A stretch of 64,000 nucleotides of DNA. Origin: Bacteroidota bacterium (GTDB taxonomy: Bacteria > Bacteroidota > Ignavibacteria > UBA10030 > SZUA-254). The notes below the pieces were generated by a model. The model worked only from the letters and a program-made list of their open reading frames with translations, did not search any database and was not told the origin of the DNA. The stretch lies in NCBI GenBank assembly GCA_020056225.1, contig JAGVIE010000017.1, positions 251 through 64,250 on the forward strand, read 5' to 3'. How positions within the stretch are numbered: the first letter of the stretch is position 1; each line of letters begins with the position of its first letter. Position numbers and translations under genes: made by a program. This document shows positions 28,887-61,156 of the stretch, piece by piece.

Positions 28887-30827
28887 TCATATTAGAATAA
28901 CACTAACTTGTCCTGGGAACATTTTACCGATGAGGACATTATGTTCAATTGTGAATGCTTTTCCTGAGAGCAAATCTTCCAATACTTTCTTATTTGTATC
29001 TACCTTCAAAGCCAAATCTACTTTTTCAAGCATATTCGAATTTGCTATCACCAATAGCTGATGCTTCTCACTCTCCGATTTTCTTTTGAAAGCTATCGTA
29101 TCCTTTGAGTTCGTTTCAATCCACACAAACGACTCAATGGAAGAACCAATAATCAATGAATGATACTTTTTTCTAACGGCTGAAACATTTTGGATCCAAT
29201 CTATGATCTGGTTTTTGTTCTGCCAATCATACGCATACTCACTGAATAGTGGAAGCTTTTCGGACGGTAAATTAATCAGCTCCTCCTTCTTGAAATCAAG
29301 TCCGGTATTGATTGGATACTCCTCACCAAGCTCGAATCCGGAATGAATAAAAGGAACAGCAGGTATGAAATTACTCAACGCCCATGCGTACTTTGAATAC
29401 AAAACTCCACCCTCTCGTGCCGCCGCCCTCGGAGTGTTATGGCTTTCTGCTGTGGCAAAGAACGGAAGCGCAAATCCTTCCGTTGTGAAACGCTTAAGCA
29501 TATTTTTGAATTTCACCGGATGATGCTGATCGCTCCATTGATAACCGATGACAGCATTGTATCCTTCCGTAACGCTTTTCTCGGTTACTGAAAAATTCTC
29601 ATCCCAAAAAGCAAAGTCAGGATCAATACCACGTGCTCGTTTTATCATATCGTGTTTTAGATCCATCGGCAGTGCATGTCCCATATCTATCATGACGCCA
29701 TCAATTCCAAAAGTATGCTGGTAATGAGGTATAATCTCGGCAATCTTTTCCCAAAGTTCTCTGGTAATATTTTCAGGACGCGCAAGTCTGTCATCATACA
29801 TGCGGAGGGTATTATATGCGATGTAATTGAAATCCGGGTGATCGTATATTTTCAAATATGTCACGTCTCCCCATGGCGGCTGTGTATCATGGGGGGGCCA
29901 ATCGGCAAAGGCGCCAGGGATGCGAACTTTCGTACCATCATCCAGTGCACCGACATATCTTCCCTTCTGAATTTTAGTATTTTCTGGTTTCGGAGGTAAT
30001 GTAAACATATCGCGATAAATATTATGCGGAGGTATAAGATTATCATACTTTCCGTTATCAACATCCGCTATGATTTTTTTTAATTCACTCTGCGAGAAAA
30101 TCGGATTACCATACTCTGTCTCGTCGTGATGATGCGGTTTTCTGTCCTTGATGTTTTCACGAATCCAATAATACCAATCGGGATGTTCTTTCACCCAATC
30201 ACCGTCCTTAGATGAAGTACGAAATACGAATTCAACCACTACACGCATACCAAGATAATGCGCTGAGTGCACAAAGAATTTGAATTCTTCTTGAACTCCG
30301 AGTCCGGCGTTAGGTTCATGCAGATTCGGATCAAGCTCATAAGGATTTTTAATCGCATACGGCGATCCGAGCGTTCCTTTATTTCCATCCGAACCGATTG
30401 AGGTAATGGGAAGAAGGTGAATCGTATTAGCGCCTAAAGATTTTATATAAGGCAACATGGCAGTTGCTTTTAGGAAAGTACCTGTTTCTCTCCACCCTTC
30501 AGGATTAACGGGCAAATCCAACCTGCCGTTTTCGTTATGATCGTATGCGCAGGTTGTTCTGACAAACATATTGTAGATAATCGCATTGCGTGTCCACTTC
30601 CCACCGTGAATTTTTGGAATAGGGACATGCTTCTGATTTATGATATAATCAAATGCATTAAGATAAAAACTTGGCGGATTAATCTTTATGAGTTGAACTT
30701 TCGCATTATTCTGTTTCTCTGCAATCCAGATGTTGGGAACAGCATACCGGCTTCTTTTACCTTTGTGCTGTTGAAGGTTTTCCGTTAATTTCTGACGAAT
30801 CTCAATCAAATATTTTTTCATTTCCAT
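28887..30827 (-). CDS. Cytoplasmic alpha-amylase-family (GH13-like) glycoside hydrolase
   Basis: No signal peptide. GH13-like conserved regions are present (GANTIHLLPI...; GIDGVMIDMGHALP; FWDE). The longest ORF (start 30875) overlaps malG by 43 nt, so an internal Met (MEMKKYL / MKKYL) is the preferred start. Confidence 0.55.
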   Translation of the reverse strand: MEMKKYLIEIRQKLTENLQQHKGKRSRYAVPNIWIAEKQNNAKVQLIKINPPSFYLNAFDYIINQKHVPIPKIHGGKWTRNAIIYNMFVRTTCAYDHNENGRLDLPVNPEGWRETGTFLKATAMLPYIKSLGANTIHLLPITSIGSDGNKGTLGSPYAIKNPYELDPNLHEPNAGLGVQEEFKFFVHSAHYLGMRVVVEFVFRTSSKDGDWVKEHPDWYYWIRENIKDRKPHHHDETEYGNPIFSQSELKKIIADVDNGKYDNLIPPHNIYRDMFTLPPKPENTKIQKGRYVGALDDGTKVRIPGAFADWPPHDTQPPWGDVTYLKIYDHPDFNYIAYNTLRMYDDRLARPENITRELWEKIAEIIPHYQHTFGIDGVMIDMGHALPMDLKHDMIKRARGIDPDFAFWDENFSVTEKSVTEGYNAVIGYQWSDQHHPVKFKNMLKRFTTEGFALPFFATAESHNTPRAAAREGGVLYSKYAWALSNFIPAVPFIHSGFELGEEYPINTGLDFKKEELINLPSEKLPLFSEYAYDWQNKNQIIDWIQNVSAVRKKYHSLIIGSSIESFVWIETNSKDTIAFKRKSESEKHQLLVIANSNMLEKVDLALKVDTNKKVLEDLLSGKAFTIEHNVLIGKMFPGQVSVILI

Positions 30828-30832
30828 TTTCT

Positions 30833-31675
30833 TTATCCTTTTACACTTCCCAAAGTCAATCCGGAAACTAACCACTTACTTAATATAATAAACAATGCAA
30901 CGACTGGGATCATAACAATAAGCGATGCCGCACCATATAAGCCCCATTCTGTGGACATGTTCGCTTCGAACGACTTCAAACCAAGCGGTAACGTCCATAA
31001 CTGAGTATCCTGTAATATTTGAGCCGCAACGATATACTCCGACCACGCAGTCATAAAAGAAAATAATCCGGTAATAACAAGCGCCGGTGATGCCAACGGT
31101 AATATCACTTTGTAAAATGCCTGGAACTGATTGCATCCATCGATTCGTGCGGCTTCCTCTAAACTGATCGGAATTGTGTCGTAATATCCTTTCATCGTCC
31201 AGATGCAAAACGGTAATGCAGTCGCTGAGTAAGTTATGATAATTCCTAAATATGAATTTATCAGTCCGAGATATATCAACATAAGATAAAGCGGCAATAA
31301 TAACATGGTTGCCGGGAACATTTGAGTAACAAGCAAGCCAAGCAACCCGACTTTCTTCCCGATGAAATTGAAACGCGAAAATGCGTAGCCGGACATAGCC
31401 GCAAGCGCGACACCTGTCAGTGTAACTGTTAATGAGATAAGCGCACTGTTCCGTACCCAAAGTAAGAATGGTTGATCTGTGAATAATGATACATAAGATT
31501 TCAACGTTGCATTTTGTGGAATTATTTCAAGCGATGTCGATAGCAGTTTGTCTGATGGTCGAAGTGAGATTGTGACAACTTGAAGTACGGGATAAATTGC
31601 TATCAATGTAAAGATCACCAACACTAAGTGAGTTAGAATCCGAAGAATTATTTTTTTATTTTTTGAGGATGTCAT
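30833..31675 (-). CDS. Sugar ABC transporter permease (MalG-like)
   Basis: Six TM helices and an EAA-like loop (EAARIDGCNQFQAF), 280 aa. Confidence 0.8.
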   Translation of the reverse strand: MTSSKNKKIILRILTHLVLVIFTLIAIYPVLQVVTISLRPSDKLLSTSLEIIPQNATLKSYVSLFTDQPFLLWVRNSALISLTVTLTGVALAAMSGYAFSRFNFIGKKVGLLGLLVTQMFPATMLLLPLYLMLIYLGLINSYLGIIITYSATALPFCIWTMKGYYDTIPISLEEAARIDGCNQFQAFYKVILPLASPALVITGLFSFMTAWSEYIVAAQILQDTQLWTLPLGLKSFEANMSTEWGLYGAASLIVMIPVVALFIILSKWLVSGLTLGSVKG

Positions 31676-31754
31676 TTGTAAATTGTCATTAGTTATTTGT
31701 CATTTGTTCCTTGTTTTACCCTATGCTCATATCCCATATCTCAAATCGTATATT

Positions 31755-32648: not shown

Positions 32649-32750
32649 TATTCATGTTTCAAGATTCAAGTGTCAGGTTCACTATTCACTATGAACGAAT
32701 TATGGTGATAATTCATTATTTTAATTTTGCTTTTTTCATTTTGCATTGTC

Positions 32751-34004
32751 TCACTCATTCATCTCTGCAATTTTTCTGAGAGCTAAGCTTTGCATATTTT
32801 TCGCCGCTTGCTCAGGAGTTTTAACTCCACCTAAAACAGCCTGATAGCTGGGACGCATCGCATCCCAGATTGCACGTAATTCCGGTACAACAGGCATGGG
32901 TCTGCCGCGATCGATCTGGATTTGTGAATTCTTCAGTATCTCATCATTCTTAATAAACGGATCGTCGTACAGCGCTCTCCATGTAGGCATAGTATTTAAT
33001 TGTTTAGCCGTTTCGAGTTGATTCTCGGGGGCAAGCAGATATCTTAAAACGTCAACAACAATCTTTTCTTTTTCTTTGGAAACGTTCACGTTTATTGAAT
33101 ATCCTTTCGGAGAAACCATTGGCGCGCACCACAAACCTGTCTTCACAATCTTTGGTAACGGGGCGATCCCGATATCTATACCCGCCTTCTTATAACCTGC
33201 CCAAGACCAGTCACCGTTGATTATCATTGCCGCTTTTCCATCCTTAAACAACGCATCTGCAATGTTATAATCGGCCTCCCTCGGAATTATCTTGTAGATA
33301 TCGCGCAACTCTTTAATGAAATTCAAGCCATCGACAACACCGCGATTATCAAGTGTTGGCTTTCCATCATCATCCATAACCCAACCTCCGAAGCCTGTCA
33401 TGAACGGAATAAAGAAAAACGGCTCTGTGTAATTCCAAACCAACCCGTATTGTTCGAACCTTCCATCACCGTTTGAATAGACAGTTAAGCGTTTACCGAT
33501 TTCTATTAACTCAATATCGGTCTCCGGTGCTTTCTGCAATAGATTTTTATTAAAGACAAGCGTAAGATGATTTCCTAGCTTATCTGCAATCTGATACAAA
33601 TGTCCTTTGTACCAGGTTACGCCCTTAGGATTAAACGAATCTATCCACGCTTCGCTGAAGATATTTTCCATCGGTTTAATGATATTCATTACCTGAAACG
33701 GACCAATTTGATCCGAAGGACCATAAACCAAATCCGGTCCCTGCCCTGCAATTGCCGCAATGATAAAACCTGAACGCAGTTCCTCTGTTTCCTTATAGAT
33801 AGCTTCGAGATGGATTCCAGGGTGAAGTTCCATGTACTTCTTCATCTGACCTTCGAGTATAACCCGCTCATCAACTCGCATCTGATGCCATATGACTATG
33901 CGATTTAGATCAATCCTCCTTGAACAAGAAAGAAATAGGACAAGAGAAAGTAATATTATACTTGATAGATGGATGATCGATAATAGATGACGGATGATTT
34001 TCAT
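32751..34004 (-). CDS. Extracellular solute-binding lipoprotein (family 1, MalE-like)
   Basis: Signal peptide with lipobox (LFLSCS), 417 aa, SBP_bac_1-like. Lies upstream of the two permeases. Confidence 0.75.
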   Translation of the reverse strand: MKIIRHLLSIIHLSSIILLSLVLFLSCSRRIDLNRIVIWHQMRVDERVILEGQMKKYMELHPGIHLEAIYKETEELRSGFIIAAIAGQGPDLVYGPSDQIGPFQVMNIIKPMENIFSEAWIDSFNPKGVTWYKGHLYQIADKLGNHLTLVFNKNLLQKAPETDIELIEIGKRLTVYSNGDGRFEQYGLVWNYTEPFFFIPFMTGFGGWVMDDDGKPTLDNRGVVDGLNFIKELRDIYKIIPREADYNIADALFKDGKAAMIINGDWSWAGYKKAGIDIGIAPLPKIVKTGLWCAPMVSPKGYSINVNVSKEKEKIVVDVLRYLLAPENQLETAKQLNTMPTWRALYDDPFIKNDEILKNSQIQIDRGRPMPVVPELRAIWDAMRPSYQAVLGGVKTPEQAAKNMQSLALRKIAEMNE

Positions 34005-34091: not shown

Positions 34092-37000
34092 CTACCTAAT
34101 AAGTATCATCTTGTGTACAGTTGAAAATCTTTCAGTAGTCATACGGTAAAAATAGATTCCACTTGCGACATTACCTGCATTCCAAATGAAATCGTATGAA
34201 CCGGCGGGCTTCTCGCCATTTACTACAGTTTCTACCTCACGACCAAGAAGATCGTAAATAGTGATCTTAACAACTGATTTCGTTGGAATGGAATAGCTGA
34301 TTCTCGTTGTCGGATTAAACGGATTAGGATAATTTTGTAATAGCGCAAACTCCTTCGGAATCTCAATATCCTGAAGCACATCCAATATCGGGTTATCTAT
34401 TACAACCGTATCGCGCGTTAATGAAACCGTATAAAGAGCAGTTCCATATGCTGGCAGTGTAACTGATACTGAATTGAACGTGGATCCTAATATTTGCTCA
34501 GATGTATTTGTATAGAGATTGTTGAGATAGTAATTTGCAGCCGGTTGTATTCCGTCGGAGAATTTCAATCCGTAGTTTATGGTTAAATCGAGTGATGCGG
34601 ATTGTTCATTACCCGAAAAATTCACAACTGTCAAACCGTTTTGATCACTGTAGGGCCTCGAGAATGCATATACAATATTGTTGCTCGATGTAATCCTGAT
34701 GAAATCAGTCGTGTCGGATGAGTTAACTTGAAAATCATGATTTGTATCGCGTTTATGTTGTGTGAATGCCGGAAATTGTCCGCGAATATTTGCCAACTTT
34801 TGGTAATGCGGAATCAAAAGGTTTTTACCCTGAAAATCCCAGTTGATAACGCTGCGGTTTCTGGCGATTTTATCACCCGCAATACCGTATCCCCAACCGA
34901 CTTCCTGACCGTTCCATAACATTGGAAATCCCGGTGCCGTGAATATCACGCTTGCCATCGGCATTGTTTTCTTAAATGCAGTTGCGGGATTGTTGTCGTA
35001 GTATGATGTTGCATAAGGATCATTATAAAATATCCGATCTTCATCCTGTGTTTCCATAAAGCGCATGTAGAGAGAATTCACACCCGGATAGAACCCTACG
35101 TTATCGATCTCGGCATGCAAGTTTGTTATTGCTGTTGAACTAAAACCGAAATTAACAATACTATTTCTGTACAATTTGAAATCATAAGATGCATCGACCC
35201 CGCCGCGAACATCTATGTTTGAATAATCGGCATATATTGTTTCTGTGCCCGATCCTGTTCCGTCATCTTCAGCCAGCAAAAGGATATCCGGTTTTATATG
35301 TTTGAGCGCCTGCCTGACCGGTTGTCCCATATATCTTTCTCCGTACCGTCTATGAGGTCCCCAATAAACATCAAAGCGGTATCCGTCGACGTCGAATTCT
35401 TTAATCCAGTATTTATATACGTTGATCATTTCCGTTCGAAAATCGATATCCAGCCAGTTGAGGTTCAGTAACTGATCCCACCCATCATAATACCAGAAAT
35501 TGTCTGCGTCATACGATGTACCGAGACCGTTTGTATTATGGGGAATATCCTGATGCTGGTACCAATTCCAGTAGAATGAATTGGTTTTGAAAGTATGCGC
35601 ATCAGCCGACCACGGATGAAATCTACTCGAATGGTTGGGCGTGATGTCGAGTATTACTTTGATTCCTTTTATATGTGCCTGAGAAATAAAATTTTTCATA
35701 TCCTGATTAGTGCCGTACTCAGGAGCAACATTATAAAAATCCGTAATATTATATCCCGGTCCGATGCCGTTATCTATAGGGTAAGCGTTTTTCATTACGG
35801 GCATTAACCATATAACATTGAATCCAAGATCTTTTATATACTGAAGTTTTTGCCCGGCGGCGCTAATAGTCCCGGAAGCCGTAAAAGCTTTTGGAAAGAG
35901 AAAATAGATGCGCGCTTTCTGTGCCCAGGATGGATTGCTTGCAATAGTTGGAATTATCAAACTTCCATTATTGATTGTGAAGTAATTTCGTGTAGTATCT
36001 TTATTTCCATTCACATCGGTAACTATGAGTCGGAAATAATACTCACCGTTTGCCGTGGGGCGCGCCGCGTTAATTGTTTTCGATGAGGAGCCGTTAACCC
36101 CCGAAATAACTTGAGGATTTGTAGAATCAGCGGACCAGCTATATACCAATGAAGTTGTTTGACCTGCGTCCGGATCGGAGCTTTGGCTTGCATCTATAAT
36201 AACAATGCCCCCCGGTATTGAAAATGAGATAACTGCATTCGGTGAATGATTAACTTTTCGGTACATGACAATCGGAGAGGATATTTTTGAAATCCCCGAC
36301 GATTCTGCAACCGCAACAAATGAATTTGCACCTTCTATAAGTGGTGCATCATATGCGAATGCTTTATTTGAAACTGAAACGGTAAACGTATCGGTGGTAT
36401 TCCGAATAATTCTTGTTGAACTAACCGTACTATCCCCTACTACTCCATTAAGTGTCCACGAACTCTTCAATGTCGTATACGGAAATTGATTTAATAATTG
36501 GACAAAACCTCCGCGTGTGGTAAAATTCACTGTATCGGCATTCGCACCTGCTGTCAAGATCACTATGTGGTTACCGTTTAACAATGGTAACGATGGCGTA
36601 AATGTAAATTGATTCGTGATGAAATTATAATAATTCCCGATTTCAGAATAATCAATCCCATCTATCTGTAATCGTAATGTCGATGTATCAAGTACGGTTC
36701 CCGCTTTTGGAAATAGGTACGAAGAAATAGTCGGGAATGATGTATAAACGATAGGATCACGCTGATTAGGTAAAAGATGATAGATAGTCGGATCTTTTAC
36801 ATAAAGTATAGAGTTTTGAAACGCATCGGAATTGACGTGATGATTCAAAGGATCATTGGGCCACGAACTAACCCCAGCATAATAAAATTTATATAGATGA
36901 GTACCAACAGCAATACGCGCGTTTCTGGTCCAAAGATCACCGCTAACTTTGGTCATGGGCCAAATCGAATTATTCCATCCGTTGAAGGTCCCTGCGACAT

Positions 37001-37109
37001 AAGGCGTTGCGGTACCGCTATAATTATACCTGAAAACGACATCGACGCTATCGGCAGCCAGTGAAACAGTGATCGAGAAAATAAAGACTAAAAATAATTT
37101 TAGTTTCAT
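34092..37109 (-). CDS. Secreted GH13 alpha-amylase/pullulanase-family enzyme with N-terminal CBM-like domain and type-A T9SS CTD (1005 aa)
   Basis: Signal peptide and GH13 regions (GFNVIWLMPV; DGYRFDVYW; LLAEDDG). C-terminus reads NYPNPFNPTTRISY...GIYFYRMTT...KMILIR. Confidence 0.8.
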   Translation of the reverse strand: MKLKLFLVFIFSITVSLAADSVDVVFRYNYSGTATPYVAGTFNGWNNSIWPMTKVSGDLWTRNARIAVGTHLYKFYYAGVSSWPNDPLNHHVNSDAFQNSILYVKDPTIYHLLPNQRDPIVYTSFPTISSYLFPKAGTVLDTSTLRLQIDGIDYSEIGNYYNFITNQFTFTPSLPLLNGNHIVILTAGANADTVNFTTRGGFVQLLNQFPYTTLKSSWTLNGVVGDSTVSSTRIIRNTTDTFTVSVSNKAFAYDAPLIEGANSFVAVAESSGISKISSPIVMYRKVNHSPNAVISFSIPGGIVIIDASQSSDPDAGQTTSLVYSWSADSTNPQVISGVNGSSSKTINAARPTANGEYYFRLIVTDVNGNKDTTRNYFTINNGSLIIPTIASNPSWAQKARIYFLFPKAFTASGTISAAGQKLQYIKDLGFNVIWLMPVMKNAYPIDNGIGPGYNITDFYNVAPEYGTNQDMKNFISQAHIKGIKVILDITPNHSSRFHPWSADAHTFKTNSFYWNWYQHQDIPHNTNGLGTSYDADNFWYYDGWDQLLNLNWLDIDFRTEMINVYKYWIKEFDVDGYRFDVYWGPHRRYGERYMGQPVRQALKHIKPDILLLAEDDGTGSGTETIYADYSNIDVRGGVDASYDFKLYRNSIVNFGFSSTAITNLHAEIDNVGFYPGVNSLYMRFMETQDEDRIFYNDPYATSYYDNNPATAFKKTMPMASVIFTAPGFPMLWNGQEVGWGYGIAGDKIARNRSVINWDFQGKNLLIPHYQKLANIRGQFPAFTQHKRDTNHDFQVNSSDTTDFIRITSSNNIVYAFSRPYSDQNGLTVVNFSGNEQSASLDLTINYGLKFSDGIQPAANYYLNNLYTNTSEQILGSTFNSVSVTLPAYGTALYTVSLTRDTVVIDNPILDVLQDIEIPKEFALLQNYPNPFNPTTRISYSIPTKSVVKITIYDLLGREVETVVNGEKPAGSYDFIWNAGNVASGIYFYRMTTERFSTVHKMILIR

Positions 37110-51550: not shown

Positions 51551-53680
51551 TTATTTCTTTGCGTAATAATATTTCGTTGTATATTCTTCAACCATCCTGT
51601 GCGTGTTATAAATGGGAATAATGGATCGCATGGCGTTTCTCATTTTCTCAATCCACTTACGGGGTATTCCATTCTTATCACGCTGATAAAATAATGGAAT
51701 TACATCGTTGCTTAGCACTTGATAGAGTGATTCGGCGTCCCTTCTATCTATTTCTTCGGGAGTCAGTGAATCTTTCACTTTTTCACCGATAGCCCACCCG
51801 TTCTTGCCATTATACGCTTCATTCCACCATCCGTCAAGAATGCTGAGATGCAATCCGCCATTGATGGAAATTTTTTGTCCGCTTGTTCCGCTTGCTTCCA
51901 AAGGACGGCGCGGCGTGTTAAGCCAAACATCGCAGCCTGCAATCAGGTGGCGCGCTACATTCATATCATAATTTTCGATGAAAACAACTTTGCCGAAGAA
52001 TGGATGCTGTCGCGTCATGTTGATTACCTGTTTAAGATAATCCTTCCCTTCATTATCGCGCGGATGAGATTTCCCGGCATATACAATCTGGATCGGTCTA
52101 TGAGGATCATCGAATAATTCCTGTGCTCTTACTATATCGTTGAATAAAAGAAGAGCACGCTTATAAGGCGCGAACCGACGTGCGAATCCTATCGTAAGTG
52201 AATCGAATGAGAGCAGACGATATAGCGCATCTTCACCGGTTGGACCGCCAAAAGTATGCTGCTGCTGGGCGCGTGATCGCAGGAATTCGATGAGTTCCCG
52301 TCTCAATTCATACCGAAGCGCCCAAAGTTCTTCATCCGATACTATTTTGGGGTTCGTGACATGCTGCCAGAATTTCGGATCGCATAGATGAGATTTCCAT
52401 CTATGAGAATTGTGCCTTTCCCAGAATTCCCATGACCGTTGCAGTGTCCAGCTTGGAATATGTACGCCATTAGTAACATGCCCGATCGGTACCTTTTTCG
52501 ATTTCAATCCCGGAAACAAATCTATCCACATCAAACGCGATATGTCCGAATGTTTTTCGCTTACTGCATTTGCTGCTCTTGACAGTTTTAGACCGAGAAC
52601 CGTCATGATAAACTCGGCGGAATCTTCTGTACTTATCGTTTGACCGAATCGCATGAGTTCCTTGATCGAGATTTTCATCCAATCTGCGAAGGGCTTCAGC
52701 GTAAACTCGATCAGATCACCAGGGAATCTATCATGTCCTGCAGGAACAGGTGTATGGGTAGTAAAGATACATTGATCGCGTACTAATTGTTTTGCTTTTG
52801 TTTTCGGGACCCCTTTTGATATTTGCTCCCTTAGAAGTTCTAACGTTAGGAATGCTGCGTGACCTTCGTTCATATGGAATACTGCCGGTTGAATTCCGAG
52901 TGCACGTAAAAACCTGACGCCACCGATTCCGAGAACGATCTCCTGTCGAATACGGGTGTTAATATCGCCTCCGTATGCACCGGCAGTCAAACCCCGGTAA
53001 TGCTCTTCGTTTTCAGGAACATCGGTATCGAGTAAATAAATCTGGCATCGTCCGACATTGATTCTCCATCCTTGAAAGTGTACTGTACTGTTCCCGATCG
53101 TTACCGTACAGATCAATGTTTTCCCCGAGTCATCCGCAACAATTTCTACAGGTATATTGGATGGATCGGTTGTCGGGTAACTTTCTTGTTGATGACCATT
53201 AGGGTCAATGTGTTGTTGGAAATATCCATGCCTGTAAAACAGACCAACCCCGACTAAAGGAAGTCCAAGATCACTTGCCGATTTTACGTGATCTCCTGCG
53301 AGCACGCCAAGACCGCCTGAATAAAACGGCAGACATTCATGAATTCCAAATTCCGCACAGAAGTATGCTATAGGATCGTGTATTCTTTTTCCGCCATTTA
53401 TATTGGGAAAGCGCGGCTTGTAATCCATGTATGCTTCGAAAGAGTCGAGTACGCTCATTAGACGAGCAAGAAAATCTTCATCACCGAGGCGCGCTCGAAG
53501 CTCAGTCTCGGAAAATTGTTTACGTACAGCAATCGGATTATGGTTAGTCGCTTCCCATGTCAGGGGTGAGAATTCCTCAAAGATCGCCTGTGCGCGCGGA
53601 TTCCAGCTCCACCACAAATTATACGCCATCGCATCAAAGCGTTTCAATATTGCTTTTACATCGCGTTCTGTTTTCTTCAA
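51551..53680 (-). CDS. Alpha-glucan phosphorylase (GT35, GlgP/maltodextrin phosphorylase, archaeal-Thermus type)
   Basis: N-terminal LWWSWNP motif and the conserved regions of the alpha-glucan phosphorylase family, 709 aa. Confidence 0.8.
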   Translation of the reverse strand: MKKTERDVKAILKRFDAMAYNLWWSWNPRAQAIFEEFSPLTWEATNHNPIAVRKQFSETELRARLGDEDFLARLMSVLDSFEAYMDYKPRFPNINGGKRIHDPIAYFCAEFGIHECLPFYSGGLGVLAGDHVKSASDLGLPLVGVGLFYRHGYFQQHIDPNGHQQESYPTTDPSNIPVEIVADDSGKTLICTVTIGNSTVHFQGWRINVGRCQIYLLDTDVPENEEHYRGLTAGAYGGDINTRIRQEIVLGIGGVRFLRALGIQPAVFHMNEGHAAFLTLELLREQISKGVPKTKAKQLVRDQCIFTTHTPVPAGHDRFPGDLIEFTLKPFADWMKISIKELMRFGQTISTEDSAEFIMTVLGLKLSRAANAVSEKHSDISRLMWIDLFPGLKSKKVPIGHVTNGVHIPSWTLQRSWEFWERHNSHRWKSHLCDPKFWQHVTNPKIVSDEELWALRYELRRELIEFLRSRAQQQHTFGGPTGEDALYRLLSFDSLTIGFARRFAPYKRALLLFNDIVRAQELFDDPHRPIQIVYAGKSHPRDNEGKDYLKQVINMTRQHPFFGKVVFIENYDMNVARHLIAGCDVWLNTPRRPLEASGTSGQKISINGGLHLSILDGWWNEAYNGKNGWAIGEKVKDSLTPEEIDRRDAESLYQVLSNDVIPLFYQRDKNGIPRKWIEKMRNAMRSIIPIYNTHRMVEEYTTKYYYAKK

Positions 53681-53734: not shown

Positions 53735-53778
53735 AAAACAAACTAAATAAAATACCCCGGCATGAATTGCCAGGGTAT
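53735..53778 (-). terminator. Rho-independent terminator after the 1041-aa gene
   Basis: Minus-strand hairpin ATACCCTGGCAATTCATGCCGGGGTAT followed by a T-rich run. Confidence 0.45.
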
Positions 53779-53796
53779 CGTCAATTGAATGGATGT

Positions 53797-56700
53797 CTAT
53801 TTCACTAAGACCATTTTTCCCGAATGTGTGAAGCTCCGATCGATATCACTAATCCCGGCAGCCCTGATTGTATAAAAATAAATTCCGCTTGCTACAGGCA
53901 TATTATTATGATTCAACGAATTCCATTCGACCGTTTTATATCCTGCAGTTTGAACTTCGTTAAGAAGTGTGATAATATCCTGCCCTAATTCATCATAGAT
54001 TTTTATAGATATAAGTGCATCAACAGGTAGTGCGTATTTAATCGATGTAGTCGGATTAAATGGATTCGGATAATTGGGTTCGATGGAAAATTGTTTTGGT
54101 AATTCGATTGCGACTAAACTCTTAATCGATATCTTCGAATCCGAACCTGTAACTTTAACAGCTCCTGAAGCAGTCATCGGAATGTCTTTACCGGCGACTG
54201 TAATTACTAATGGAGATGAAGATGAATTTATCTTCCATTCAATGGTCAGAGGATAGTATTCAGCTTTGACATCAACAGGTATTTCTTCTTGTTGATTTGA
54301 TTCTATCATCTCCATTGATCGGTTAGTTCTGAAGCGAACGTCGAATGCACCGGCAGGTGGAAGAGGCGGCAATTCATATCTAGCTGTAAAAATATTATCG
54401 CTCTTCTGCGCAAGAAATAATTTCTGACTTGTTCCGCGCGCATCTTTAATAATAATCTGATTCAGATTTTCCGACCTTTGCTCTCTTGCCAGGATTTTAT
54501 GTACTACAACCGGTTGTTGAAGTACTATCTTGCCCACTCCTGATTTGATCCAGTAAGCTTTACCCGGTTCAAGTGTATCGGCTGACTGGTAAGAACCTGA
54601 ATAACAGAAGAAATCACTCTTTAGTATATCAAGTGGATCGGTCGTAATTGTTGATACTGGTACCTTCTCGGTAATCGAACCGATAAGGTTCCAGCCGTCG
54701 TTTGTAATATTGATACTATCGACCAAAATATCACGGCCTATGATAGAGAATGTGGTATCCTTTGAGAATTTCAACCAGTAGCCTAAGCTATTTTCCAATT
54801 TAGTTACACTAATATACTGGGTTGTAAATTTGAAAGCATCGGATATTGCAGTTGGAAATAACGTTGTTACTGCGGAATCAGCAACGACACGTGGCAACGA
54901 GATCATATTCCATGTTTCTGTGACAGATACATCTGTCTTATAACTTCCATCGTTGCTGAAATAAACCGGATCGATAATTAGATCGCTCATTGTCAAATCC
55001 GAAGTCCGATTCGTCAGGATGTTTTCATAACCTTTATCGTTATCGATATCTGTTTTCCAATATTTATATTCTATGCTTTGACCGCCCTGAATAGAAATAG
55101 TTTTGGAATATATTTCATCATAATTCGGATCTGTAAGTGTGTCAGGAGTTCCCCACCCGTTGAATGAACCCCGCACCAATACTGCATCGATCGATGGATT
55201 AAACAATCCTTTAATAATCTGAATGCTCATATCGACCTGGAACGTGACATCAACTGAAAGCATCTCATTATTGAAGAAATAAGTCGGCAGAGGCATGTCG
55301 CTTCCGCCTAAATCATATATACGATTCGATGAACTTTCCCAATCCATACTCGCACGCAGCGTCTTCCAGAATTTAAATTCATGACTTCTGTTTGATTCAA
55401 CCGCGAATATTTTAGTATAGATACTATCATTATCGAGATCCGACAAAGTTGTTCCTGTTTGCCAGCCGTTGTGAGTTCCGGGTATACTTACAACATCGCC
55501 TAACTCCGGTAGGAAATTACCTTTCCGTATCTGCACACGCATATCTACGCTATACGTAACATTCACATCAGCATTATTGAAATAAATTACTGCCAATGTT
55601 GAATCACTTGTACCGGTTAAGAGTGTATGATTAGTGGAACTCTCATAATCCAATCCGCTGCGATATGTCTTCCAGAATTTATATTGATAGGATTTATTTT
55701 CTTTGATGGAAATCGTTTTTGTATAGATGCTGTCATTATTCAGATCATCCAACGTATCTGGTTTGCCTGGTGCGTTTCCCCAATTATTAAATTCACCTCT
55801 TACAGTAACCTGATCTCCCGAAGTAATTATAAAATCACTGTTACGCATCATCATCTTCATATCAACCTGAAACGTAAGATTCACATTTTTTGTGAACACT
55901 GCACGTATGCTGTGATTCATTATTACGTTTATAAAGGTATAACTCGAAGCGGTATCTACCGAAACATCGTCGACAATTAGACTGTCAATATAATATCCGG
56001 GATCGGGAGTTATTGTAAAAGTTGTATCGTCTCCATCTGCAACAATCACCGAGCCGGATGGATTGATGGTGCCATTGATGCCGGCGGCGGCAGTAATTGA
56101 ATATGTCGGTGATGATACGATGTATGAATAGTTCAAACCTGAATTATTATCATGACTGATGGTGACCAAATCGTAATTTGAGGTCGGGTTTGTAAGAGTT
56201 GTTGAGAATATATAATATTTCACTGAAGTTCCGCCTGTCTCCGCAGGGATTGTTGCAGTTCCACTCGCGCCGATGAAACTGACCTCAGCTAATGTCGAAC
56301 TCGCCCAATTATCTGTTGTATACCGAACGTAGACGTTTTCTTCGGCAGATTTAGATGTATTTAGAGTAACGGTAACAGCTACCGGTGTTGATGATGTTAC
56401 AGAACCCGGCAGTGGTAATTGAGTTACGGAAGATATCGTTACAGGTTGCGCCGAAGTTTCCATCCAAATCGCATCAGTGTTTGCATAACCATTATCCTTA
56501 AAATTTACATTGTAATATTTGCCATCCGATAGTGTTATAGTATTATTTGCCGGATCTTCCTTTATATAAGTTTGAACGGTGTTCATTACGACTGTCACAC
56601 CCGACCATTTATTATTAGAATATCCTCCGACCGGACCGCTTGTGAAAAGCCATTGATATGTACCTGCCGATGTATCTGCGCCGGAGACATCAATGTGTAT

Positions 56701-56922
56701 AGTAGTGCGATACCGGCGCGTAGCTAAGGAAGCATCAACTAAAAATGTTCCGCCGGTCTTCTGAATACCTGCAAATGAATTAATGTAAGGAGGATTTGTC
56801 CAATTATTGAAATCTCCGGGCATATTCATTCCCTCGGGGGGCCATACTTGACTAAGAGCCAATGGATTCAGCATCAAAAATAACATGACGCTTAGTGAAA
56901 TAAGTAATAATTTATGCTTCAT
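53797..56922 (-). CDS. Secreted protein with three tandem starch-binding-like modules plus Ig-like domains and type-A T9SS CTD (1041 aa)
   Basis: Three ~105-aa repeats: FQVDMKMMMRNSDF...GEFNNWG...YQYKFWKT; YSVDMRVQIRKGNF...GTHNGWQ...HEFKFWKT; FQVDMSIQIIKGLF...GSFNGWG...IEYKYWKT. C-terminus reads NYPNPFNPTTSIKY...GIYFYTIRA...KMVLVK. Confidence 0.7.
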   Translation of the reverse strand: MKHKLLLISLSVMLFLMLNPLALSQVWPPEGMNMPGDFNNWTNPPYINSFAGIQKTGGTFLVDASLATRRYRTTIHIDVSGADTSAGTYQWLFTSGPVGGYSNNKWSGVTVVMNTVQTYIKEDPANNTITLSDGKYYNVNFKDNGYANTDAIWMETSAQPVTISSVTQLPLPGSVTSSTPVAVTVTLNTSKSAEENVYVRYTTDNWASSTLAEVSFIGASGTATIPAETGGTSVKYYIFSTTLTNPTSNYDLVTISHDNNSGLNYSYIVSSPTYSITAAAGINGTINPSGSVIVADGDDTTFTITPDPGYYIDSLIVDDVSVDTASSYTFINVIMNHSIRAVFTKNVNLTFQVDMKMMMRNSDFIITSGDQVTVRGEFNNWGNAPGKPDTLDDLNNDSIYTKTISIKENKSYQYKFWKTYRSGLDYESSTNHTLLTGTSDSTLAVIYFNNADVNVTYSVDMRVQIRKGNFLPELGDVVSIPGTHNGWQTGTTLSDLDNDSIYTKIFAVESNRSHEFKFWKTLRASMDWESSSNRIYDLGGSDMPLPTYFFNNEMLSVDVTFQVDMSIQIIKGLFNPSIDAVLVRGSFNGWGTPDTLTDPNYDEIYSKTISIQGGQSIEYKYWKTDIDNDKGYENILTNRTSDLTMSDLIIDPVYFSNDGSYKTDVSVTETWNMISLPRVVADSAVTTLFPTAISDAFKFTTQYISVTKLENSLGYWLKFSKDTTFSIIGRDILVDSINITNDGWNLIGSITEKVPVSTITTDPLDILKSDFFCYSGSYQSADTLEPGKAYWIKSGVGKIVLQQPVVVHKILAREQRSENLNQIIIKDARGTSQKLFLAQKSDNIFTARYELPPLPPAGAFDVRFRTNRSMEMIESNQQEEIPVDVKAEYYPLTIEWKINSSSSPLVITVAGKDIPMTASGAVKVTGSDSKISIKSLVAIELPKQFSIEPNYPNPFNPTTSIKYALPVDALISIKIYDELGQDIITLLNEVQTAGYKTVEWNSLNHNNMPVASGIYFYTIRAAGISDIDRSFTHSGKMVLVK

Positions 56923-56974: not shown

Positions 56975-59900
56975 TCATTTCATTAAAATCATTTTTCTTG
57001 TTTCGGTGTAAGCTCCGCTTCGCAACCGGTAGAAATACATACCATTCGGATATTTATTACCGTCCCATTCTACATTATAAACACCCGGTTCTTTCATATC
57101 ATCAACCAATGTCTCCAGTTCTCGCCCTATTAAATCATAGATCTTAATGACAACATGATTTGAGAACGGTAATTCATATTTGATTGATGTTGTTGGGTTT
57201 AACGGATTCGGATAGTTTTGATATAAGGAAAATCTGGTCGGCAACTGTTCTACATCCGAAATCTCAAGTATTACTGAGAATGGCGGTGATGTCAACTCAA
57301 CATCTCCGATGGAACCGATTGGAATCGTTCTGCCATCTATTTTTATATTTACCTTCAATGACTGGACAGGTAATTGACATTGCAATCTAACCGGGTATTC
57401 AACGGAAGATAAATTGATTGGAAAAATGCCAGCTACGCCGTGCGAAATTAATTCGACATTTCTCTGAGATGCATACCGCACATCAAATATTCCGAGAGGA
57501 GGAATCGGCGGCAAACCATATAAATCATCGTTTGAATCCTTATTGGCTCTTGTACCGAAATATAACACTTGTCGATGATGCGCTGCGTCTACAATTACCA
57601 GCTTGCCGTATCCCTCGATGGCGCAGTTTATGTTTTTTCTTGTAATAATATTACCAATGTTCAAATCTTTCATAACAATCTTGCCCGCAGTATCCGTTTT
57701 GACCCAGTAAGCTTTAGCGGGCTTTATTGTATCGGCAAATTGATAGCCGTCTCCATAAGTATAAAATGGGGAAATAATATTTCCTTCAGGTATCTGGAGA
57801 ATAGAAGCGGCAAGAATCTGATTCGATATTGAACCGATCATATTCCAACCGGCTTTTACATCGAGAGTTTCTAGCTCCGTGACGAATCCAGTAAACGGAA
57901 TATCTTCTCCCGAAGCAAACTTCAACCAATAACCAACTCCAACCTCCAGCGAAACTTGAGAGACATAACCAGAATCCTGTGAATATGAAAATGCGTCTGA
58001 AATCGAGGCAGGGAATAAATGCTCCTTGGTATTATCGTACAACCACATCGGCAATGAAACCATATTCCAAGCCGGATCAAAATGATACGAGTTTGTTGTT
58101 TGTGTTACAGTAAATGACCATACAGTTGAATAAGTGCTTATTCCGGCAATATTTTTTGAACGCACTCGCCAATAATATTTTGTATTGTTCGAGAGAGGTC
58201 CAACCTGTTTTGACGATGCTACTATTGTTGAATCATCGAATACCGTTAAGTTAAAAGTAGAATCCTCGGATACCTGAAGCCGATAGGTTTGTGCATTAGA
58301 TACAGTGTTCCAGTTCAAAAATGGTGTGCTCGGCTGATGTTCATTGCTATCGGTAGGCGCTGATAAAGTCGGCACTAAAGGTGGCCCATAAATTCTCATA
58401 TAACCGGATGTGTTATGAATGCTATCCCAAATCCCGCCGCCATTTGTACTATACCCGCCAAATACATACTCACTGCCGGAGAATTGGAATCTACTTGTGA
58501 AATAATAAATCCCGTCGGGTAAGGTTGCGCCAAGGTCTAATTTATATTCGTCGTAACCGTTAATGTCAAGATTATATGTTGCCGGAATCCACGATGTCCA
58601 AGTTGATGGATTACTATTTGAGTTATTGTATCCGAACCATGCCTGCAGACCCGAACCCTGTCCGGATGAATCGGTTATACCCATGCCATACGCCCGTGCA
58701 TATACTGTAACGAAATTGCCTATGGTGAACTGCGCGCTTAAAGGGTATTGCAAATTACAGTTTGTGATCTGCTTCTGACCGTAATACGCGTAATAATTCA
58801 ATCGCGTAATAACGCCGCTCCATGCGGTTGTATTCTGATCGTTTGGACAAGCATCGAAGGTCGCTTGTGAATTTTGATTTCCCGTTAGATACATTTGAAT
58901 TCCAAGCAATGAGGGTGACCCCATTGCTGATTTTAATATCCTGCCTTCGATCCAGCCATCAGAAGAAATATCGCTATTAATATTCTCAGCATATTCGGTT
59001 GAATTTAAACCTGTTCCAACTCCGCTCCATGAAGAACCATTCCATGTATGGAATTGTGCGCCGCCTGAGAATGAGCCGCGAAAAACATAATCCGGTTTGT
59101 TAGTATGATTATAGAGAATACTTCTGCCCCAGCTATCAGCCGATCCGCCACCCAGTTTTGTATTGAGAGCGAAAGCCCAATTCATCCACTGTCGAGTCTT
59201 GACCTTAGCGCCGAGGTAGAAATAGTTTTGATCCTGAGTAACGTAAATCTCTTTCACCGAAGCACTATCCCAACCGGCAAGTGTATCCGCAATAAGGAGC
59301 GCTTGCCCCCAGATGCCGTTTCCCTCGAAAGTACCGTCTAAAAGAGGATGGTTTAATACGTTCATCATAAAAGTTGTGGAAGCAGTATCATCATGCGGAT
59401 CGATAACATTCAGGGTTACATTGAAAACAGCTACATCAGATTCAGCCGGTGTCCCAATTAATTTCCCGGAAGTCGATACCGATAGCCATGCCGGATTTCC
59501 CGACAATGAAAATGCCAACGAGTCGTTATTAGGATCGCCATAGCCAGTTTGATATTCATACGGTGTATTGATAAAAACAGTTTGATCTGCAATATCGACT
59601 ATGTAAGGTGGATGGTTAATATGCAGTGTAGTATCAGGGACGTAAATAACATATCCTCTTGGCGGTGCCCATAGCTCTACCCTTCCATCAACAGCAGATT
59701 GTTTATCTATCGCAACACCTGTAAAATCTCTGAACACCTGATTTGGATAATCAGTGTTAACCCATACACCTCTCCATCCTGATGAATTATCATTGATTAC
59801 CAGATATGTCGCCGGACGACCATCCCCGCCGTTTCTGCGAGCGACGTAAATATCTGCCGCTTGTTCATCTTGCGTTCCTGACCCACCAACATACCATGGA

Positions 59901-61156
59901 TTCAGTCCACTGCGTTTTGTAGTTCCACCCCATAAATAATTCTGTCGTATCCATAACAAGGTATCGATCTTTCCGCGCAATCCGTAAATGTAATAATCTC
60001 TGAACCAAACGCAGGGCCTTCCTTCCGAAAACAATGTGTACGCATACGCCATGTCTTTATTGTAAATTATCGGATTGTGCGCCGCAGGATTATCTATTGA
60101 GCCATCGTATCCGGCGCGGTCAACATCATGATTTTCAACAAATGTAACGACATCATATCCGGATGTGCCGTTGTTAATTAAACCTGCGCCATCCAACCAT
60201 GTCATGTTATATCCGCCGGAAGTATTGTTGCACATCTCCTTAAGGTCAAATCTCAAGGGAAAATCGAACATCGAAACAGTTCCACCATAATATTTACACC
60301 AGTAGAGCCAATTCTGAATTCCGCTAAGTCCATCATAATCCTCAGCGACAGCAAAGCCACCGGCATTTGTTTCCTGAAGCCATGGACCGACAAAGATCGG
60401 ATCAATTGATTTTACTTCATCGATTCGAAAACCATCAAACCCTAAAACCTGTCTGAGATATTTTCCCCATACGATTAAACTATCTTTAACTTTACTTTGA
60501 GCGTGGGCAAGTATTTCTCCGAATTTATAGATCGGGTCGGTGGGACCATGATAAGGCGGATTGACATCGCATGTTTGCTGGTTCGGATAGAAGAACGTCG
60601 CGTCTTTCAGAAATCTGCCGGAACCATACTGGTAATTAAAAACCAACCACCCAGAATCGGGATATGTGGGATATGGTTTACAATCGTAAGATACTTTCTG
60701 ATCAGCGCCATTCATATGTCCCATGACAGCGTCGGCGAAAACCTGCATTCCATTGTTGTGGAAAGTATTGATCATTTGAGTCAATTCCTGACGGCTTCCG
60801 AAACGCGTTTCAATTGATCCTTTCTGGTCGAATTCACCGAAGTCATAATGATCGTAAATATCGTATCCCATTGAGTATGTCCCGGCTGCGCCTTTCGTTG
60901 GCGCCGGTACCCATACTGCACTAAAGCCCGAAGATGCCAATGCAGGCGATAATTTTGCGAGAGAATCCCACCAGATACCACCGGGCGTAGAGTTCCAATA
61001 AAATCCCTGCAAGAAGGCATCTGACTTTGGCGTACTCTGAACTCTGACCGGATTATTATGTGTTTGGCTGAGTAGTCGGCATGTCAACAAAAGGAAAACT
61101 AATAGGATATAAACAATCTTATTCATCGAGAGCCTTGCTGTGGATTCAGTTATCAA
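56975..61156 (-). CDS. Secreted multidomain GH13 alpha-amylase with Fn3-like module and type-A T9SS CTD (1393 aa)
   Basis: Signal peptide and an N-terminal GH13 catalytic domain (GFSAVWVPAPTKG; GFRIDEVKS; ENHD). It carries an internal Fn3-like repeat matching the repeats of the protein at 1-1464. C-terminus reads NYPNPLNPTTSIKY...GMYFYRLRS...KMILMK. Confidence 0.8.
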   Translation of the reverse strand: MITESTARLSMNKIVYILLVFLLLTCRLLSQTHNNPVRVQSTPKSDAFLQGFYWNSTPGGIWWDSLAKLSPALASSGFSAVWVPAPTKGAAGTYSMGYDIYDHYDFGEFDQKGSIETRFGSRQELTQMINTFHNNGMQVFADAVMGHMNGADQKVSYDCKPYPTYPDSGWLVFNYQYGSGRFLKDATFFYPNQQTCDVNPPYHGPTDPIYKFGEILAHAQSKVKDSLIVWGKYLRQVLGFDGFRIDEVKSIDPIFVGPWLQETNAGGFAVAEDYDGLSGIQNWLYWCKYYGGTVSMFDFPLRFDLKEMCNNTSGGYNMTWLDGAGLINNGTSGYDVVTFVENHDVDRAGYDGSIDNPAAHNPIIYNKDMAYAYTLFSEGRPCVWFRDYYIYGLRGKIDTLLWIRQNYLWGGTTKRSGLNPWYVGGSGTQDEQAADIYVARRNGGDGRPATYLVINDNSSGWRGVWVNTDYPNQVFRDFTGVAIDKQSAVDGRVELWAPPRGYVIYVPDTTLHINHPPYIVDIADQTVFINTPYEYQTGYGDPNNDSLAFSLSGNPAWLSVSTSGKLIGTPAESDVAVFNVTLNVIDPHDDTASTTFMMNVLNHPLLDGTFEGNGIWGQALLIADTLAGWDSASVKEIYVTQDQNYFYLGAKVKTRQWMNWAFALNTKLGGGSADSWGRSILYNHTNKPDYVFRGSFSGGAQFHTWNGSSWSGVGTGLNSTEYAENINSDISSDGWIEGRILKSAMGSPSLLGIQMYLTGNQNSQATFDACPNDQNTTAWSGVITRLNYYAYYGQKQITNCNLQYPLSAQFTIGNFVTVYARAYGMGITDSSGQGSGLQAWFGYNNSNSNPSTWTSWIPATYNLDINGYDEYKLDLGATLPDGIYYFTSRFQFSGSEYVFGGYSTNGGGIWDSIHNTSGYMRIYGPPLVPTLSAPTDSNEHQPSTPFLNWNTVSNAQTYRLQVSEDSTFNLTVFDDSTIVASSKQVGPLSNNTKYYWRVRSKNIAGISTYSTVWSFTVTQTTNSYHFDPAWNMVSLPMWLYDNTKEHLFPASISDAFSYSQDSGYVSQVSLEVGVGYWLKFASGEDIPFTGFVTELETLDVKAGWNMIGSISNQILAASILQIPEGNIISPFYTYGDGYQFADTIKPAKAYWVKTDTAGKIVMKDLNIGNIITRKNINCAIEGYGKLVIVDAAHHRQVLYFGTRANKDSNDDLYGLPPIPPLGIFDVRYASQRNVELISHGVAGIFPINLSSVEYPVRLQCQLPVQSLKVNIKIDGRTIPIGSIGDVELTSPPFSVILEISDVEQLPTRFSLYQNYPNPLNPTTSIKYELPFSNHVVIKIYDLIGRELETLVDDMKEPGVYNVEWDGNKYPNGMYFYRLRSGAYTETRKMILMK

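Follow-up and report, generated by a model that had tools for sequence, protein, structure and literature searches.

A 32.3-kb alpha-glucan utilization locus

The DNA analyzed here is a 64-kb stretch of contig JAGVIE010000017.1 (G+C ~40%), hereafter the window, in which positions 28887-61156, a span of 32.3 kb, hold a starch locus whose TonB-dependent receptor is followed by a large secreted protein, which we call Big, and by a small outer-membrane beta-barrel. Genes were identified by combining an open reading frame (ORF) map with Pfam and NCBIfam scans of the window's ORFs, and signal peptides and lipoboxes were read directly from the N-termini. An earlier reading made from the letters alone (the sequence-only reading) had taken the genes between 28887 and 61156 for a dedicated alpha-glucan locus. 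Every gene that it listed was found where it had placed it, and the dedication to alpha-glucans holds, with four GH13 and one GH31 glycoside hydrolases, one GT35 glycosyltransferase and several proteins resembling carbohydrate-binding module (CBM) families CBM20, CBM48 and CBM53 lying together (Table 1). Such co-location of carbohydrate-active enzymes (CAZymes) for a single glycan is one criterion for a polysaccharide utilization locus (PUL) of the type of the starch utilization system (Sus). Judged by its gene content, 28887-61156 is an alpha-glucan utilization system of an Ignavibacteriales bacterium; homologs of Big carry the names Ignavibacteriales, Ignavibacteriaceae or Ignavibacterium, and the closest relative of Big, 95% identical, lies in a metagenome-assembled genome (GCA_964520905.1) in which the same locus is present.

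Ten genes form a minus-strand block that runs from 47595 to 28887, its genes spaced 0-102 nt apart, in the order receptor, Big, barrel, 497-aa CBM20-like protein with a type IX secretion system (T9SS) C-terminal domain (CTD), 490-aa GH13, 1005-aa GH13, MalE, MalF, MalG and a 662-aa protein. A divergent plus-strand unit consists of an MsmK/UgpC-type ATPase and the GH31 enzyme. Farther along the minus strand lie the GT35 phosphorylase and then a two-gene unit, which encodes a 1393-aa GH13 amylase and a 1041-aa CBM protein, both with CTDs. A sigma-70 promoter scan returned 62 promoters against 52.9 expected from the shuffled background, which is not above it, and gave no operator candidates; no regulator gene was found within the window. 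Two mechanically listed ORFs, at 30876-31460 (-) inside malG and at 49467-49967 (-) inside the GH31 gene, are almost certainly not genes.

Table 1. Features of the starch locus and of a second, related gene set in the window, with the scores or sequence traits that define them.
Feature	Position	Strand	Evidence
TonB-dependent receptor, 916 aa	44845..47595	-	Signal peptide, N-terminal CarboxypepD_reg, Plug, beta-barrel; first gene of long minus-strand operon
Big, 1204-aa secreted protein	41213..44827	-	Signal peptide of signal peptidase I (SPI) type, no lipobox; no Pfam/NCBIfam family
PorV/PorQ-family (FadL-like) outer-membrane beta-barrel, 333 aa	40199..41200	-	NF033709 229.3 bits, cutoff 90
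Surface protein, 497 aa, CBM20/CBM48-like modules + CTD	38660..40153	-	TIGR04183 48.1 bits; CBM_20 25.7 bits (whole protein)
Periplasmic GH13, 490 aa, SusA analogue	37110..38582	-	Alpha-amylase 262 bits; signal peptide
Surface GH13 enzyme, 1005 aa: CBM48-like module, PKD, GH13, CTD	34092..37109	-	TIGR04183 40.5 bits
MalE-like solute-binding lipoprotein	32751..34004	-	Lipobox LFLSC; SBP_bac_8 92 bits; MalE best NCBIfam match, 136.7 bits
MalF-like permease, short form, 297 aa	31755..32648	-	BPD_transp_1; NF008232 182.5 bits, profile positions 265-517 only
MalG-like permease	30833..31675	-	BPD_transp_1; NF008231 178.9 bits
Divergent GH13-like enzyme, 662 aa by ORF, cytoplasmic	28887..30827	-	hDGE_amylase 41.3, Alpha-amylase 38.1 bits; no signal peptide
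Divergent intergenic region, receptor operon vs msmK-GH31 operon	47596..47933	.	Presumed control region
MsmK/UgpC/MalK-type ABC ATPase	47934..49031	+	MalK OB/TOBE regulatory domain; ABC_tran 121, OB_MalK 40 bits
GH31 alpha-glucosidase, SusB analogue	49062..51500	+	Glyco_hydro_31_2nd 433.7 bits; MalA 532 bits; signal peptide
GT35 alpha-glucan/maltodextrin phosphorylase, cytoplasmic	51551..53680	-	TIGR02094 805.7 bits; no signal peptide
Intrinsic-terminator-like hairpin	53751..53779	-	12-bp stem + T-run; closes GH13(1393)-CBM(1041) transcription unit
Surface protein, 1041 aa, tandem CBM20/CBM48/CBM53-like modules + CTD	53797..56922	-	TIGR04183 27.7 bits
Surface alpha-amylase, SusG analogue, 1393 aa by ORF	56975..61156	-	NF006970 358.8 bits; TIGR04183 37.0 bits
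Second set: PorV/PorQ-family barrel, 350 aa	10682-11734	-	NF033709 217 bits
Second set: CarboxypepD_reg receptor, 967 aa	11747-14650	-	
Second set: lipoprotein, 590 aa	14650-16422	-	
Second set: T9SS-CTD protein, 741 aa	16423-18648	-	
Second set: Big paralogue, 715 aa	18707-20854	-	

The receptor qualifies as TonB-dependent, a class defined by a Plug domain and a 22-strand barrel, scoring 66.8 bits on CarbopepD_reg_2, 34.3 on Plug and 37.4 on OMP_b-brl_4, with Plug and barrel above their cutoffs. It had been called SusC-like, which is right for the N-terminal CarboxypepD_reg domain but not for the family: against the SusC/RagA model TIGR04056 it scores 42.7 bits with a cutoff of 368.25, and the match is confined to its N-terminal 130 residues. 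By this measure, the receptor is not a member of the SusC/RagA family. The claim that the locus lacks SusD, which by the sequence-only reading's own account a SusD-like gene detected by model would refute, held up, with no SusD/RagB match among ORFs of at least 150 aa in the locus and of at least 120 aa elsewhere in the window. No SusD/RagB lipoprotein adjoins the receptor, and the gene that follows it, Big, carries no lipobox. The locus works like a Sus-type system, yet fails both hallmarks of a PUL, the SusC-family transporter and SusD.

Big and its barrel

The gene that follows Big had been read as a FadL/PorQ-like barrel, and it indeed passes the PorV/PorQ subfamily model NF033709. It fails both equivalog models (118.4 bits on PorQ NF033711, cutoff 220; 94.7 bits on PorV NF033710, cutoff 250), with the PorQ score the higher, and judged by these scores it is an orthologue of neither PorV nor PorQ. 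BamG was rejected as an identity (23 bits, cutoff 250).

Big begins with a beta-supersandwich that bears conserved acidic DGIDNDxDG loops, continues through an FN3-like domain and a beta-rich stretch that varies, and closes with a C-terminal domain that is divergent and PorZ/PorU-like. The sequence-only reading had described it as a calcium-binding protein of 1204 aa; the gene is present, and calcium binding would follow only from its conserved DGIDNDxDG-type motifs, invariant acidic DGIDNDxDG...DE loops that read like calcium-binding motifs. An exact look-up of the protein found no matching record, a PDB sequence search no match, and Pfam applied to homologs from four lineages a single sub-threshold FlgD_ig match. 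The family is nevertheless large. Searching 1.84 billion representatives with HMMER returned 2786 clusters, defined at 50% identity, under a threshold of E<=1e-3; tightening it to E<=1e-30 left 445. Members are ~700-1600 aa long and share the core (query residues ~10-840) and the C-terminus, and the region between these varies.

AlphaFold2 models are almost all beta both for the full mature protein (predicted local distance difference test, pLDDT, 79.5; predicted TM-score, pTM, 0.65) and for the N-terminal 600 residues (pLDDT 82.0, pTM 0.83). Foldseek matches of the N-domain in the PDB are led by galactose-mutarotase-like supersandwich domains and are marginal (E ~1e-3 to 1e-1, TMq 0.2-0.3); they comprise cyclic glucan synthase, dextran dextrinase, the N-domains of GH94, GH149 and GH116 enzymes, aldose epimerases and the P1 domain of YidC. 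The modeled supersandwich would be compatible with a carbohydrate-binding role. It is unlikely that Big is an unrecognized glycoside hydrolase, as the models are almost all-beta and contain neither a TIM-barrel nor an (alpha/alpha)6 catalytic domain.

At the other end of the protein, three motifs of T9SS CTDs (PNPY, GxYxY and a terminal K) are preserved in the last ~100 residues, and hhalign aligns them to the window's bona fide CTDs with a probability of 55% (E 1.2e-4). The top PDB match of the full model in Foldseek is PorZ (5m11, E 1e-6). Across the family, the C-terminal end of the PorZ model finds sub-threshold matches in P0327, P0395, Big715 and P0461 (four members from three lineages), that of the PorU model in P0327, P0236 and P0461, and TIGR04183, the model for T9SS type-A CTDs, in P0327 and P0395. 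Pfam gives only scattered sub-threshold CHU_C, Por_Secre_tail and FlgD_ig matches on the C-termini, and NCBI or UniRef give some homologs the name "T9SS type A sorting domain-containing protein". Taken together, these matches amount to a weak resemblance of Big's C-terminus to the CTDs that PorZ and PorU retain.

The receptor-Big-barrel triad is conserved across phyla

The receptor, Big and barrel genes lie back to back, with gaps of 12-17 nt in the window, and we refer to this arrangement as the triad. Scanning a genome collection with the Big alignment gave 473 species-level matches, of which the best 80 GTDB species loci, all Ignavibacteria, were fetched; in these 80, the receptor-Big-barrel order is kept wherever the contig allows, and Big and barrel are each ~55-70% identical to the window copies. 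In six Ignavibacteria loci, a second triad follows just downstream of the first. The same triad turned up on one marine Marinimicrobia contig, in one KSB1 genome and on a further metagenome contig, and the names borne by Big-family members include Marinimicrobia, Fidelibacterota, KSB1, Calditrichota and the "FCB group". A metagenome scan was seeded on a KSB1 member, yielding 80 loci 32-61% identical to the seed, on which profile hidden Markov models of receptor and barrel built from the earlier loci were run. Among the loci with room, the receptor lies immediately upstream of Big in 65 of 67 and a PorV-like barrel immediately downstream in 68 of 70, with both in place in 56 of 58.

The surroundings of the triad are much less constant. 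Of the Ignavibacteria loci, 60 extend far enough downstream to be judged, and in 34 of them (57%) the gene directly after the triad encodes a CBM20-like CTD protein; CTD cargo genes of any kind follow it in 43, and 17 have none nearby. MalEFG is nearby in only one of these loci, and few have glycoside hydrolases in reach, so that the starch assignment of the orthologous group leans on the CBM neighbor and on loci from Balneolales. In the latter order, Natronogracilivirga saccharolytica, whose Big-family member is 34% identical to that of the window, and Balneola sp. both encode, after the triad, a CTD protein, a regulator of the LacI family and a GH13 amylase that bears a T9SS CTD, which links the triad to starch independently in a second order. 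The whole starch pathway adjoins the triad in the window and in the 95%-identical relative. Because the order of the triad is kept while its CBM, glycoside hydrolase and MalEFG neighbors vary, we conclude that consolidation into one 32-kb locus belongs to this lineage and its closest relatives, and that the ancient unit is the triad.

Paralogous copies of the triad occur as well. The KSB1 genome (L089 1-12450) and a metagenome contig of the Joint Genome Institute (JGI; L090 1-13831) each carry two complete triads head to tail. The KSB1 pair adjoins peptidoglycan-recycling genes (Amidase_2, NamZ, SLT/LysM), which hints at substrates other than starch, and in L090 a Big of 1589 aa has a Reg_prop/PorZ-like propeller region. 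In the window, too, a rearranged set that is paralogous to the starch triad lies at 10682-20854 (-) (Table 1). This second set (8372-20854, -) continues with an NHL-repeat lipoprotein and a DUF1028/TPR protein, and no CAZymes are among its genes.

Two further kinds of gene recur near triads. A SurA-like PpiC/rotamase gene (563-605 aa) lies directly upstream in both Balneolales genomes (L086 5342-7069; L087 5345-7036) and a few kb downstream in Ignavibacterium (L001 18189-20006); it could be a dedicated chaperone or a coincidence. In the window, a glutamine-synthetase gene (61182-62696) abuts the large amylase with a gap of 25-55 nt, and GlnA-like genes also lie beside the triad in Ignavibacteria loci L012, L015 and L080 and in the Marinimicrobia locus (L088 1411-2781).

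Surface cargo, enzymes and inner-membrane transport

The sequence-only reading had assigned type-A T9SS CTDs to two GH13 amylases and two binding proteins and proposed a TIGR04183 search as a check, which all four proteins pass (cutoff 23 bits). These surface enzymes and binding proteins thus carry T9SS CTDs and not lipoprotein signals, and their hydrophobic N-termini read as Sec signal peptides. Because of this combination of signal peptides and type-A CTDs, we predict that the two amylases and the two CBM-rich proteins leave the cell through the T9SS and are put on display at its surface, where they would bind and cut starch. In the 1393-aa amylase (likely start ATG at 61126), a PRK09441-type GH13 catalytic domain is accompanied by Ig-like domains and the CTD, with Pfam matches to Alpha-amy_C_pro and He_PIG; the 1005-aa enzyme scores 130 bits on Alpha-amylase, 26.9 on AMPK1_CBM and 31.5 on K319L-like_PKD.

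The starch-binding modules, which had also been proposed, received qualified support. Whole-protein CBM scores are just above cutoff (for the 1041-aa protein, CBM53 33.3, CBM_20 31.8 and AMPK1_CBM 29.9 bits), but they are sums over weak repeats of which no single stretch passes alone. Repeats shared, with an offset, by the 497-aa protein, the 1041-aa protein and the tail of the 1393-aa amylase support the assignment; a PDB sequence search gave no match for the 497-aa or the 1041-aa protein. On present sequence grounds, no part of the annotation is softer than the CBM assignment. The 497-aa protein is a candidate SusE/F analogue. Its orthologue in the 95%-identical relative (L004 14675-17266) has 863 aa and matches the protein at 38660-40153 twice (84% and 87%), so the number of tandem binding modules varies even between very close relatives. 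The window contains at least six CTD proteins; a further type-A example, of 478 aa with FN3 and Ig-like domains, is encoded at 28-1464 (+).

Both the 490-aa GH13, which had been called periplasmic, and the GH31 alpha-glucosidase carry signal peptides and are therefore placed in the periplasm; the GH31 enzyme had been listed before, and only its location is amended here. The 490-aa enzyme resembles a cyclomaltodextrinase, neopullulanase or MalZ (AglB 351 bits, MalZ 340 bits, both under their equivalog cutoffs). As for the 662-aa enzyme, its ORF extends to 30875 from a GTG, but translation probably starts from the ATG at 30827, 5 nt past the malG stop.

Inner-membrane uptake by an ATP-binding cassette (ABC) system, as proposed earlier, agrees with MalE, MalF and MalG being the best NCBIfam matches of the three ABC genes, of which the MalE-like protein has to be amended to a lipoprotein by its lipobox. 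The system belongs to the CUT1 family of sugar transporters (SBP_bac_1/8, BPD_transp_1). The maltose equivalog models are the best matches but stay under their cutoffs (MalE 137 of 291 bits, MalF 182 of 392, MalG 179 of 261, MalK 439 of 568), whereas the ATPase, which has no signal peptide, passes the UgpC subfamily model NF008653 (480.9 bits, cutoff 432). Maltodextrin specificity is inferred from genomic context. The ATPase had been described as separately encoded; it does belong to a divergent operon, but its gene lies inside the same locus. "Gram-positive-style", the term applied to this transporter, was loose wording, since MalEFGK is classically Gram-negative.

Elsewhere in the window, amid housekeeping genes and unrelated to the starch locus, 23700-26075 (+) encodes a family-B DNA polymerase of 791 aa with exonuclease and polymerase domains.

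A proposed role for the triad, and its alternatives

The conserved gene order across phyla suggests that outer-membrane uptake is carried out by receptor, Big and barrel together. Big, which has no lipid anchor, would reach the surface through the T9SS by means of its divergent C-terminal domain and would keep that domain, tethering itself non-covalently to its cognate PorQ-like barrel as PorZ does on PorQ. Its supersandwich and variable beta-rich domains would then capture maltooligosaccharides and pass them to the adjoining receptor, the part that SusD plays for SusC. PorZ and PorU retain their CTDs and sit by them on the PorQ and PorV barrels (PMC10202324), and the barrel here passes the PorV/PorQ model; for these reasons we read Big as a CTD-retaining T9SS substrate on a private barrel. 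In the remainder of the pathway, SusE/F-like binding would fall to the CTD-displayed CBM proteins and the role of a SusG-like enzyme to the 1393-aa amylase, the periplasmic GH13 and GH31 would trim the imported oligosaccharides, the lipoprotein MalE with MalFG and the MsmK-type ATPase would carry maltodextrins into the cytoplasm, and the GT35 phosphorylase and the GH13-like enzyme would complete the breakdown there. On balance, we think it probable that Big is exported by the T9SS, docks on the PorQ-like barrel and serves as a SusD-like partner of the receptor.

Several observations weigh against this proposal. The supersandwich matches of the N-domain are marginal, and the fold also occurs in proteins unrelated to glycans, such as YidC. 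The PorZ match of the full model has TM-scores of only 0.10-0.15, all CTD-type matches of the Big family are below the curated cutoffs, and the window's own Big has no TIGR04183, Por_Secre_tail or PorZ match. Any GH13, GH31 or GT35 gene lies within 10 kb in only 7 of the 60 Ignavibacteria triad loci. TonB-dependent maltodextrin uptake in Proteobacteria is not known to need a surface partner, as in Caulobacter MalA. For Ignavibacteriota, the literature goes no further than that a T9SS "may also be present" (PMC11285876), and no T9SS core genes (porK/L/M/N, sov) were found within the window. Altogether, we infer the mechanism of the triad wholly from gene order and weak similarities.

The sequence-only reading named Big and barrel in passing as downstream partners of the receptor and had the T9SS-displayed CBM proteins replace both SusD and SusE/F. 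If the CBM proteins did so alone, the receptor would work without a dedicated partner, like the maltodextrin receptors of Proteobacteria, and Big and barrel would be accessory or unrelated neighbors. These CBM/CTD proteins are real and share their modules with the surface amylase, SusD-less TonB-dependent sugar uptake is known from Proteobacteria, and no match of the Big family proves glycan binding. For the SusE/F part we follow this model. For the SusD part, however, the synteny of the triad is much stricter than the CBM neighborhood: the receptor-Big-barrel order is found in 56 of 58 metagenome loci and in all fetched Ignavibacteria and Balneolales loci, and Big and barrel are each conserved at ~55-70% identity across the best 80 Ignavibacteria loci, whereas the CBM protein is downstream in only 57% of the Ignavibacteria loci. 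We therefore regard the model as unlikely as a whole. Since the triad is near-invariant across phyla and a CBM/CTD protein accompanies it in only 34 of 60 loci, the better SusD candidate is Big together with its barrel, and the CBM proteins are better taken as SusE/F analogues.

Alternatively, Big and barrel could form a private PorZ/PorQ-like module that sorts or attaches the neighboring CTD cargo and has no part in import. This would agree with the PorZ/PorU-like C-terminal similarity, the PorQ-leaning barrel and the presence of CTD cargo genes after the triad (43 of 60 loci). Cognate PorV-like barrels (PorP/SprF), whose genes adjoin those of type-B cargo, have been proposed as the anchors of that cargo (PMC10202324). 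It would nonetheless leave unexplained both the receptor immediately upstream in 65 of 67 loci and the triads without CTD cargo nearby (17 of 60, and the KSB1 tandem triads), and the conserved N-domain of Big is a supersandwich rather than the beta-propellers of PorZ. We consider a pure attachment role distinctly improbable.

Least credible, and in our view hardly to be expected, is that the receptor is an Oar-like exporter of Big or another substrate with the barrel as its anchor, a self-contained secretion device within the starch locus: the Oar receptor of Myxococcus has the same architecture with a CarboxypepD_reg-type N-terminus and is required for PopC secretion, our receptor matches OMP_b-brl_4 rather than SusC, and receptor and Big are strictly adjacent, but SusC importers carry the same N-terminal domain, the CTD-like domain of Big points to the T9SS, and oligosaccharides would otherwise have no outer-membrane route to the periplasmic GH13, GH31 and MalE.

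Significance

No description of a module of receptor, large protein and PorV-like barrel was found in the literature searched, which excluded most subscription journals, and the triad is probably an undescribed element of the locus. The triad may be a general, hitherto unrecognized alternative to SusC/SusD, in which a CTD-retaining T9SS protein on a private PorQ-like barrel captures the substrate, and of which the window holds a starch-dedicated member; this is a tentative view that we rate somewhat short of even. It would entail many paralogous copies with different variable domains, spread across lineages of the Fibrobacteres-Chlorobi-Bacteroidetes (FCB) group that are largely without susCD, namely Ignavibacteria, Balneolales, Marinimicrobia/SAR406, KSB1, Calditrichota and Fidelibacterota. 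What is understood of how the FCB group takes up polysaccharides comes almost wholly from SusC/SusD, and PUL prediction tools demand that pair. It is for this reason that CAZyme clusters of Ignavibacteriales have been reported as mostly without susCD and called "distinct", with no alternative named (PMC10576277). If the proposal is true, the triad would be a recognizable hallmark for such susCD-less clusters, one that reaches abundant uncultured groups such as the marine Marinimicrobia; it would link nutrient import with the machinery by which the T9SS anchors proteins; and it would give a testable function to a large family of "hypothetical proteins" of 1000-1600 aa. Considering that its substrate is obvious and cheap to test, the starch locus is a natural entry point.

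Comparison with known systems

The closest functional counterpart is the Sus of Bacteroides thetaiotaomicron (SusCDEFG with SusAB). Both systems unite surface starch binding and endo-amylase activity with TonB-dependent maltooligosaccharide import in one locus, both trim in the periplasm with a neopullulanase-like GH13 and an alpha-glucosidase, and both receptors have an N-terminal CarboxypepD_reg domain. Unlike the B. thetaiotaomicron system, the locus described here has no SusD and a receptor that fails the SusC/RagA model; T9SS CTDs take the place of lipoprotein signals on its surface proteins; the conserved neighbors of its receptor are a 1204-aa non-lipoprotein and a PorV/PorQ-family barrel; its periplasmic glucosidase is of family GH31, not GH97; and ABC uptake across the inner membrane and a phosphorylase are part of the locus. 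Closer to its own lineage, a canonical SusCDE operon has been reported in Melioribacter roseus, of the same class (PMC3534657), and PULDB lists susCD tandems in some Ignavibacteriae and Balneolaeota (PMC5753385).

With the PorQ-PorZ and PorV-PorU pairs and with PorP/SprF, the triad shares the arrangement of a gene for a FadL-like barrel of the 14-strand type adjoining one for a large secreted protein. C-termini of the Big family give sub-threshold matches to the CTD regions of PorZ and PorU, which are retained and serve in non-covalent anchoring, and among the specific models the barrel scores best on PorQ. In contrast to PorQ-PorZ, all these likenesses are under curated cutoffs, the N-domain of Big is unrelated to the PorZ propellers, and the Big-barrel pair always goes with a TonB-dependent receptor and exists as several paralogous copies, a combination that speaks for nutrient uptake rather than core secretion. 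Another precedent for the triad is BamG-BamH, in which a FadL-like barrel beside a larger barrel holds extracellular proteins. BamG docks beside BamA and carries surface proteins (PMC12578637). That system differs in that its function is outer-membrane protein assembly, and the barrel described here stays far under the cutoff of the BamG model.

Like the SusD-less loci of Proteobacteria, the present locus combines TonB-dependent glycan import with periplasmic enzymes and an inner-membrane transporter. The MalA locus of Caulobacter and the CUT loci of Xanthomonas import maltodextrins or other glycans in this way without SusD; they are not known to have a T9SS, a Big-family protein or a PorV/PorQ-type barrel beside the receptor. 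Within Bacteroidota, T9SS-linked glycan degradation offers the complementary likeness, as multi-modular CAZymes with CTDs are displayed or released and feed TonB-dependent uptake. Flavobacterium ChiA, which is T9SS-linked, goes with a SusCD PUL. T9SS cellulases are described for "Ca. Paraporphyromonas polyenzymogenes" (PMC5831590). In such T9SS-linked systems the uptake partner is still SusC/SusD, whereas in the locus described here the binding proteins, and with them the putative partner of the receptor, would depend on the T9SS.

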